A DNA stretch of 10,475 bases. It comes from a virus. Taxonomy: Duplodnaviria > Heunggongvirae > Uroviricota > Caudoviricetes. Positions 5,266 to 6,982 of this stretch are shown in pieces. The position numbers were made by a program, and so were the translations under genes. Position 1 is the first letter of the stretch, and every line of letters begins with the position of its first letter. The stretch lies in IMG/VR virus record IMGVR_UViG_2657245139_000006. The stretch is one strand, 5' to 3'. The notes below the pieces were generated by a model that saw only the letters and a program-made list of their open reading frames with translations, did not search any database and was not told where the DNA came from.

Positions 5266-6982
5266 ATGACAGATTCAATAAATGCCAATGTTGTGGTAAG
5301 CATGCCTTCGCAACTATTCACTATGGCTCGTTCTTTTAAAGCCGTAGCCAATGGTAAAATTTATATTGGTAAAATTGACACTGACCCTGTAAATCCTGAA
5401 AACCAGATTCAGGTTTATGTGGAGAACGAAGATGGTTATCACGTTCCTGTTTCTCAACCAATCATCATTAACGCTGCTGGTTATCCGGTATATAACGGGC
5501 AGATTGCCAAATTTGTAACTGAGCAAGGCCATTCAATGGCTGTATATGATGCGTATGGTTCGCAACAGTTCTATTTTCCGAATTTGCTGAAGTATGACCC
5601 TGAACAGCTTCTGCAGTTACTTCAATCTGATGAAGGGGCTACTTACATTGGCACTAATAGCGGGAAAAATCTTCAAGATGAGCTATTTGCAATAAAAAAT
5701 GAAATATATCAAGACCCGCTTACATCGTGGCCTTTCGGTGGAACATTAAAAATAAAGCAAGGGGTGTATGATGTTACCACTCCTCTGGTACTTAATTATG
5801 ATGATTACCCTGCCGACTTTGTAGGTGCTCCGGGTGTCCGCTGTTTTTACTCAGGCGAGAACATGGCTGAGACAATACTGGAATGTAGAGCTACTGATTT
5901 TAACGTAAAAATGCTAGGTGACGCAGCGTTTAACAGTCAGAGATTGGCTGCATATGACTACATCGGCAACATGACGCTGAAAGGGAATCCCGGAAGTTAC
6001 GGTATGCTGGTGCAGAATAAAGCACATACTCGTCTTGAAAACATTGTTATCTGCCGCCACCCTGACGGGGAAGGGTTACGCACTGACTCGATGCTCACGA
6101 GCGACATGACGAACGTGTACTTGCAGAGTAATCGTATCGGTTGGCGTGCTACCAACTCCGTAAATCATTCTGAACTGAACGCTATAACTGCAAATAGGCT
6201 TACGTGCAGTCAGAACAGTGAATGGGGTATCCTCGGGGACCGCTGGGGTGCTGGTACAACTATCAATAGCCTGACTTGTGAAGGAAATGGTACTCAGGGG
6301 GATTCCAGTACAGGTGGTGCGCAATTAGCCATAAATGGCCTTAACGGTTCGTGCGCTTTGGTATTAAACAACCCATACTTTGAGGCTAATGCCGGGGGGG
6401 GCAGACCTTGCTATAGATAATACTGGGACGCGCCCTGTAACTGTGGTTATAAACGGTGGAAATTTTCATCGCGTGAGCAGTGCAAGATACACGCACACTA
6501 ATATTCAAGTAACAAGCTCAGGTGGGGGAAAAGTTACAGTCATACTCAACGGCACAACGTTCCAGAGCGCAGGGGATTATCAGCCAAGTGCAGATCGACC
6601 ATACTGGATAACAGGAGCTAATTGCGAGGTAGTTGACATTGGGTGTGTTTTTACAGAAACAACCAGTAAGGCAACATCGGCTTCTGCATTGTCAGTCACA
6701 CGCTCGGGAAAAATTAACGCCAATGGTAGTATCGACGTTGCTACTGGTGTTTCATCGGTTAACGTGGTTGCTACAGGTGTGTATGAGGTTAGCTTTTCTC
6801 ATCCGCTCGCAGCAGTTGCTAGCGGTTATATTGTGCAGATAACACCTATATCTGCGCCTGATTCAGTTAGTTGTGATGTTACTTATATTGGCGTAGATAC
6901 ATTTAGGGTGACCCTGCGCAATACGCTTAGCGGAGCAGGAATCTCCAGTTCGTTTGCATTTAGCATTACCAGGCTACTATAA
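5266..6982 (+). CDS. tailspike protein (P22 gp9-type head-binding N-terminus); reading frame broken at a G8 tract
   Basis: N-terminus [14 protein letters not shown]...[39 protein letters not shown]...QPIIINAAG...[26 protein letters not shown]...LKYDPEQ matches the conserved head-binding domain of P22-family tailspikes (recalled P22 gp9: MTDITANVVVS...[36 protein letters not shown]...QGHSMAIYDANGSQ...LKYDPDQ). Frame 1 stops at 6418-6420 and frame 2 continues from 6368 to TAA 6980-6982; the only homopolymer in the overlap is G8 at 6394-6401. Removing one G gives a continuous 571-aa product (...[21 protein letters not shown]...). Confidence 0.8.

Follow-up and report, generated by a model that had tools for sequence, protein, structure and literature searches.

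Tailspikes of P22-like phages join a conserved head-binding domain to exchangeable bodies, a form of mosaicism that has entered the textbooks, and the spikes that have been characterised, those of P22, Sf6 and HK620, are all endoglycosidases. Here we describe the tailspike gene at 5266-6982 (plus strand) of a 10,475-nt stretch of viral DNA, referred to hereafter as the window, which is contig AZOT01000197.1 of a draft Shigella flexneri genome. The gene is that of SfX, a P22-like (Lederbergvirus-type) serotype-converting phage of S. flexneri. In our overall reading it encodes a mosaic, likely hydrolytic O-antigen spike and is frameshifted in the window, and we consider this reading very probably right. 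The gene itself is not new, since it had been annotated before and its body family was met in phages Sf101 (2014) and Sf11 (2025); because the spikes of both are already described, the mosaic object is not new either, and the mosaic design, being textbook, adds little.

Comparison with described tailspikes

The closest described relative is gp15 of Sf101 (AII27839.1), a Lederbergvirus of S. flexneri 7a. It has the same PF09008 domain, neck, beta-helix and C-terminal domain, occupies the same genome position 5' of an O-antigen modification gene, and is 77% identical to the SfX spike over its full length. It differs from the SfX spike in that identity falls to just 55-75% in residues ~161-320, that the G7 tract is absent from the site of the SfX frameshift, and that ten residues of the neck, NLQEELFAIK, occur twice in tandem without a mismatch (residues ~134-153), which accounts for a length of 580 aa against 570-571 aa elsewhere. 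The phages also differ in host range; Sf101 infects serotypes 1a, 1b, 3b and Y (PMC4159516), whereas SfX forms no plaques on 1a (PMC3306764).

The second relative is gp13 of the siphophage Sf11 (PDB 9OCC chain G; PMC12724387), whose body is ~72-74% identical to that of SfX, counted from residue ~121 of the SfX spike. Each virion contains 18 copies of it, arranged as six trimers, and Sf11 depends on O-antigen for infection (PMC12724387). Its N-terminus is not a P22 head-binding domain but a helical adaptor-binding segment plus PF18668, and it is carried on a siphovirus tail tip. Two better-known enzymes are related to the SfX spike only in part. The endorhamnosidase gp14 of Sf6 (2VBK, 4URR) acts on the same host species and O-antigen backbone, and its head-binding domain is 86% identical to that of SfX; its body, like that of SfX, is a parallel beta-helix followed by a C-terminal beta domain, yet shows no detectable sequence similarity to it. 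The P22 endorhamnosidase gp9 shares the head-binding domain (73% identity), a gene location flanked by the immI region and gtrABC, and the beta-helix fold class, but its body is unrelated in sequence, its length is 667 rather than 571 aa and its target is the Salmonella O-antigen.

These comparisons correct two statements in the literature. The Sf101 paper, which counted SfX among the tailspikes it compared, found 'very limited' C-terminal homology; its SfX sequence came from the chromosome record of S. flexneri 2002017, where the annotation splits the gene in two (PMC4159516). That annotation may have caused the discrepancy with our alignments. The Sf11 paper labels gp13 'Sf6-like' and mentions neither SfX nor Sf101 (PMC12724387); in sequence gp13 is related to the spikes of SfX and Sf101 and not to that of Sf6. 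Three Shigella phages that differ in morphology or lineage are thus joined by one receptor-binding module that is distinct from the well-studied Sf6 endorhamnosidase.

Identity of the prophage

Except where Ns fill a scaffold gap, the window is 100% identical to the chromosome of S. flexneri 2002017 (serotype Xv; CP001383). In addition, blastn matched nt 6593-8320 (1728 nt) at 100% identity to L05001, the database record of a 1993 SfX clone with the phage X glucosyl transferase gene. This match covers gtrX (7049..8314, minus strand), the serotype-X-specific glucosyltransferase gene, and its identity shows that the prophage is SfX. In the literature, too, the 2002017 prophage is taken as the genome of SfX, which is described there as short-tailed like Sf6 (PMC3636060, PMC3851460). 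Since the window matches both 2002017, whose prophage is taken as SfX, and the SfX clone, the gene is the SfX tailspike gene. The gene order, gp7-gp20-gp16-mnt/arc-like repressor-(HNH)-tailspike-gtrX-gtrB-gtrA-integrase fragment, matches the late end of a P22-like genome, and the tailspike gene has the position typical of P22-like phages (Lederbergvirus), 3' of the ejection genes and the immI region and 5' of the O-antigen conversion genes and the attachment site and integrase gene.

A P22-type head-binding domain that ends at the usual exchange point

An earlier note on this DNA, made without database searches, had proposed that only about the first 115 residues resemble P22 gp9 and that a different body begins near nt 5600. 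Both estimates proved accurate. The virion attachment domain occupies residues 1-113 (5266..5604, plus strand). Pfam recognises Head_binding (PF09008) at residues 4-114 with E=1.2e-62, its sole match in the protein, and sequence matches in the PDB are to the head-binding domains of P22 and Sf6. By BLASTP, P22 gp9 is 72.8% identical to residues 1-114 (E=3e-48), while the matches of Sf6 and HK620 extend over residues 1-121 and 1-157 (86% and 74% identity, respectively).

Beyond this domain the likeness ends abruptly. Sliding-window identity to P22, Sf6 and HK620 breaks off after KYDPEQ, an instance of the motif KYDP(D/E)Q, at residue ~113 or nt ~5605, and DNA matches to HK620 and Sf6 stop at ~5611 of the window. 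From sliding-window identity, pairwise alignments and blastn we place the module junction at residues ~114-125 (5605..5640, plus strand). The match to Sf11 gp13 begins at query residue 121, and those to fusions with T7-type tail fibres likewise begin within the junction. When the phage collection was searched by tblastn, the N-terminal domain was common to 171 records; among the matches listed the similarity ended at residues 114-156, and Sf101 alone continued over the full length. Because most P22-like tailspikes in the collection lose similarity here, the junction is their usual exchange point, as the earlier note had suggested.

A receptor-binding body shared by different virion architectures

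The body is not that of the P22 endorhamnosidase, again in agreement with the earlier note. When residues 116-571 were compared by BLASTP with the tailspikes of P22 (667 aa), Sf6 (623 aa) and HK620 (710 aa), no match was better than E=3, the best for P22 being E=7.2 and for Sf6 E=8. With hhalign, a profile of the body family scored probabilities below 1% against the bodies of P22, Sf6 and HK620 (0.3% for P22 and 0.05% for Sf6), and PF21519 and PF12708, both present in the Sf6 tailspike, found no match in that of SfX. The composition of the body (G 10.5%, T 9.6%, S 9.2%, A 8.3%, N 7.7%) bears out an earlier description of it as rich in Asn, Gly and Thr.

Relatives were found elsewhere. PHROG 17420, 'tail protein', matches the protein end to end (residues 7-570, E=1.1e-295), and Sf11 gp13 (9occ_G) matches it with E=4.9e-217. 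When a profile made from a 45-sequence alignment (A1) was run against all sequences of the PDB, gp13 was the only relative of the body to be found. A prophage spike of Escherichia coli PapM-32-1 is 83% identical, and distant full-length relatives at 29-33% identity occur in an Aeromonas phage (4_4512) and a Pseudomonas phage (PfAn1). Full-length likeness to P22 gp9 or to another characterised tailspike had been named earlier as the finding that would speak against a mosaic with a different body. None exists to P22 gp9; likeness to the spike of Sf101, and over the body to that of Sf11, does exist, and the interpretation stands.

The body follows at least three types of N-terminus: PF09008 as in P22-like phages, PF18668 as in Sf11-like phages, and PF03906 plus PF18668 as in T7-type tail-fibre fusions, the last represented by the metagenomic proteins P0038 and P0045. 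The neck, beta-helix and C-terminal domain together therefore form a transferable receptor-binding module that serves at least three virion architectures.

A second mosaic segment lies inside the beta-helix. Compared with the PapM-32-1 allele by blastn, nt 5284-5772 and 6066-9732 align at 91-94% identity and 5773-6065 is unmatched. This diverged, SfX-specific cassette (5773..6065, plus strand; residues ~170-267) falls within a zone of low sliding-window identity, residues ~161-320, where protein P0002, PapM-32-1, Sf101 and Sf11 gp13 are 55-75% identical to SfX; in residues 321-440, identity to P0002 and PapM-32-1 is 75-100%, mostly at least 95%. The variable segment 161-320 may be what determines the differing serotype tolerance of SfX and Sf101.

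Predicted fold and domain layout

A structure prediction, which the earlier note had proposed for the body, was made with AlphaFold2 (AF2) for the whole protein, as a monomer model built on alignment A1. The mean predicted local distance difference test score (pLDDT) was 82, and most of residues 160-460 scored 85-98. The model consists almost entirely of short strands, as the earlier note had expected. The head-binding beta domain is followed by short helices between residues 112 and 157, about ten rungs of short strands and an eight-stranded C-terminal domain.

The helices at 122-127, 136-147 and 151-157, with low to moderate pLDDT, form a predicted helical neck (residues ~126-158; 5641..5739, plus strand), which is supported by alignment to Sf11 gp13 and is common to Sf101 and Sf11 gp13. 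A right-handed parallel beta-helix is predicted for residues ~159-460 (5740..6646, plus strand), a stretch that the frameshift interrupts in the window. A C-terminal beta-sandwich is predicted for residues ~478-571, which with the stop codon span 6698..6982 (plus strand); its eight strands lie in residues 478-569 with pLDDT ~86-95, and its DNA lies within the region that equals L05001 from nt 6593 onwards. The model thus contains the parallel beta-helix that marks a P22-like tailspike, and its fold is that of the pectin-lyase-like superfamily. According to the model, the body is a pectin-lyase-like right-handed beta-helix of the tailspike-depolymerase kind, without a specific solved relative.

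Receptor and candidate active site

The O-antigen backbone of S. flexneri is Rha3-GlcNAc (rhamnose and N-acetylglucosamine) and contains no uronic acid on which a lyase could act. Several published observations connect the body family with this polymer. SfX obtained from 2002017 forms plaques on serotype Y and converts Y to X but forms none on 1a (PMC3306764), in keeping with the earlier suggestion of a glycan target other than that of P22. The host range of Sf101 tracks serotype (PMC4159516). Hosts mutated in waaL, waaG or waaC resist Sf11, which requires lipopolysaccharide of full length including O-antigen (PMC12724387). By analogy with these phages, we infer that the SfX spike is an O-antigen-specific receptor-binding protein for the Rha3-GlcNAc backbone of S. 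flexneri, of the unmodified serotype Y type.

The most conserved motif block of the family (TCEGNG...) extends over 6280..6406 (plus strand). Three carboxylates within it, E339 (6280-6282), E373 (6382-6384) and D380 (6404-6406), are invariant in all 45 sequences of A1. Together with Y371 and R402 they remain invariant down to 29% identity, including the Aeromonas and Pseudomonas phage proteins, and in the AF2 model the five residues lie on successive rungs of the beta-helix. E339, E373 and D380 are our candidate catalytic carboxylates.

Hydrolysis by an endoglycosidase is the most likely chemistry of the spike, because the characterised P22-like spikes are endoglycosidases, the substrate lacks uronic acid and no esterase domain is present. 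An SGNH esterase or a lyase was considered and rejected: Pfam detects no SGNH domain, the model is an all-beta helix and the O-antigen has no uronic acid. Thus, of the domain types for which a search had been proposed earlier, the beta-helix was recovered, through the model, while an SGNH domain was absent and no Pfam or NCBIfam model covered the body. The spike might instead bind O-antigen without cleaving it, as a non-enzymatic adhesin, or might modify the glycan otherwise than by hydrolysis of a glycosidic bond. We consider this improbable, since three carboxylates, a tyrosine and an arginine that are invariant over 29-100% identity are typical of an active site and not of a mere binding groove, and since the absence of uronic acid from the substrate, of an esterase domain from the protein and of any non-cleaving member among the P22, Sf6 and HK620 spikes all speak against it.

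Some points weigh against a hydrolytic O-antigen spike. Pfam and NCBIfam scans give no model over the body, and the putative catalytic residues were chosen by conservation. In the body family, the experimental model of gp13 in 9OCC covers only residues 4-59, which lie outside the body (PMC12724387). The AF2 model, finally, describes a monomer and not the trimer.

If the spike is hydrolytic, infection could proceed as follows. The spike would form a homotrimer, like Sf11 gp13 in its virion, docked on the tail hub by the head-binding domain (1-113). The neck, beta-helix and C-terminal module would bind O-antigen of serotype Y type, and hydrolysis at the candidate site E339/E373/D380 would allow the virion to reach the outer membrane. 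E339, E373 and D380 are thereby nominated for catalysis, and segment 161-320 for serotype specificity. A second O-antigen-directed enzyme for the S. flexneri backbone, unrelated to the first, could serve glycan typing or host-range engineering.

The tailspike gene is split by one extra G

A list of open reading frames (ORFs) shows a 399-aa ORF at 5221-6420 and, on the same strand in another frame, an overlapping 200-aa ORF at 6380-6982; the first makes best biological sense if it starts at ATG 5266. A run of eight G residues (G8) at 6394..6401 (plus strand) causes a +1 frameshift, and the upstream frame stops at 6418-6420. The PapM-32-1 orthologue has seven (G7) at this tract and a single ORF of 570 codons. 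Removal of one G from the window fuses the two ORFs into a protein of 571 aa, the length that the earlier note had predicted after correcting a frameshift, and this exact sequence is an intact S. flexneri protein (P0135) found on 33 contigs. ORFs 5266..6420 and 6380..6982 are thus confirmed as the halves of one tailspike gene of 571 codons (5266-6982).

The extra G sits in the codons of two Gly residues between E373 and D380, where conservation within the family is highest. The protein of 384 aa that is predicted would be missing the final third of the beta-helix and all of the C-terminal domain. Judging from folding studies on the P22 tailspike, a product shortened in this way would not be expected to assemble into a stable trimer. 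A single base added to the G7 tract inactivates the tailspike gene in the window.

The chromosome record of 2002017 annotates each piece as a 'Tail spike protein' (ADA72692.1 and ADA72693.1), the first being equal to the 384-aa product, and taken at face value this would make the 384-aa and 197-aa products two separate functional proteins. That is scarcely credible. The homologues are all single ORFs of 570-585 aa or longer, the break cuts the most conserved motif, midway along a rung of the beta-helix, and the two forms are one G apart in DNA that is otherwise identical.

Both tract lengths are widespread. Among the loci compared, G8 occurs in seven separately deposited assemblies (L005-L011) and G7 in twelve (L015-L018 and L026-L033); the shortened product is indexed in 43 blocks and the repaired one in 54. 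Three of the G7 loci (L028, L030 and L031) match the window over ~9.5 kb except for one base, that which distinguishes G7 from G8.

A near-identical tailspike allele was also found in S. flexneri 2a contigs (L019-L023), where it is cut by an insertion sequence (IS) at codon ~334-336 and lies beside acyltransferase and integrase genes. This allele (proteins P0035, P0122 and P0123) is known with G8 and also with G7 (P0122). Such dead copies with either tract length point to repeated decay of the tailspike in Shigella together with slippage at the tract. Because G7 and G8 vary in otherwise identical prophages and in the IS-cut allele, the tract behaves as a slippage hot spot.

It might be argued that the frameshift is a sequencing or assembly artefact and that the gene is intact in the strain. 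The tract is a homopolymer, and the G8 assemblies are mostly older (2009-2016, for example CP001383, AWOX, AZOT, AZPZ, AZPX, LVIF and LVIT) while those with G7 are mostly newer (accessions beginning JAQ and JAJH). The three prophages that otherwise equal the window would also fit an error, as would the recovery of infectious SfX from 2002017, whose genome has G8. Nevertheless, we think an artefact unlikely. G8 is present in at least seven separate depositions, the 384-aa product is found in 43 blocks that include uniformly reassembled Logan runs, and the IS-interrupted allele of S. flexneri 2a, a second allele, has G8 as well; a consensus error at G8 in many Illumina assemblies is hardly to be expected.

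A genuine frameshift fits poorly with published reports. From 2002017, whose genome carries G8, Sun et al. (2011) obtained by induction an SfX that formed plaques and lysogenised (PMC3306764). Reversion to G7 while the phage or host is growing or being induced, low-level recoding on the G run, heterogeneity of the culture or an error shared by the older assemblies could each account for the plaques.

One further proposal, which we advance with little confidence, is that the G7/G8 tract is a reversible on/off switch (contingency locus) for the SfX tailspike. If this is so, G8 lysogens would keep serotype conversion yet release few or no infectious virions, and the spike would be restored by replication slippage back to G7 or by a low level of +1 slippage during translation or transcription. 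A switch would explain both the plaque-forming SfX from 2002017 and the existence of identical prophages that differ at the tract alone. The G7/G8 difference is relevant to the question of whether phage can still spread gtrX from the epidemic Xv clone.

Neighbouring features

A terminator scan found a GC-rich 11-bp hairpin at 6991..7018, between the convergent tailspike and gtrX genes, which is probably a terminator shared by the two. A run of Ns at 767-929 breaks the gene for the gp20-type ejection protein; this is a scaffold gap, that is, a feature of the assembly and not of biology.

At the other end, only the C-terminal 154 aa of an integrase are encoded 3' of gtrA (9953-10417, minus strand), and the contig ends at 10475. 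In CP001383, IS elements and, beyond them, yaiC come after the integrase fragment, whereas a full int lies directly 3' of gtrA in contigs L008, L026, L027 and L033. The fragment is probably the leftover of an older element at the integration site and not SfX's own int. We rejected the idea that it marks a dead prophage, given that gtrA would abut attR in an integrated P22-like prophage. A scan for tRNA genes, in which the thrW attachment site was sought, found none in the window.

Between mnt/arc and the tailspike gene lies an endonuclease gene of the homing type with HNH_3 and AP2 domains (ORF 4669-5208, minus strand; region 4674-5283). The insertion is not present in loci L015 and L016 or in the Sf101 and PapM-32-1 loci, and it gives the tailspike another 5' end, so that the protein begins MTDSIN... 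rather than MSDITA....
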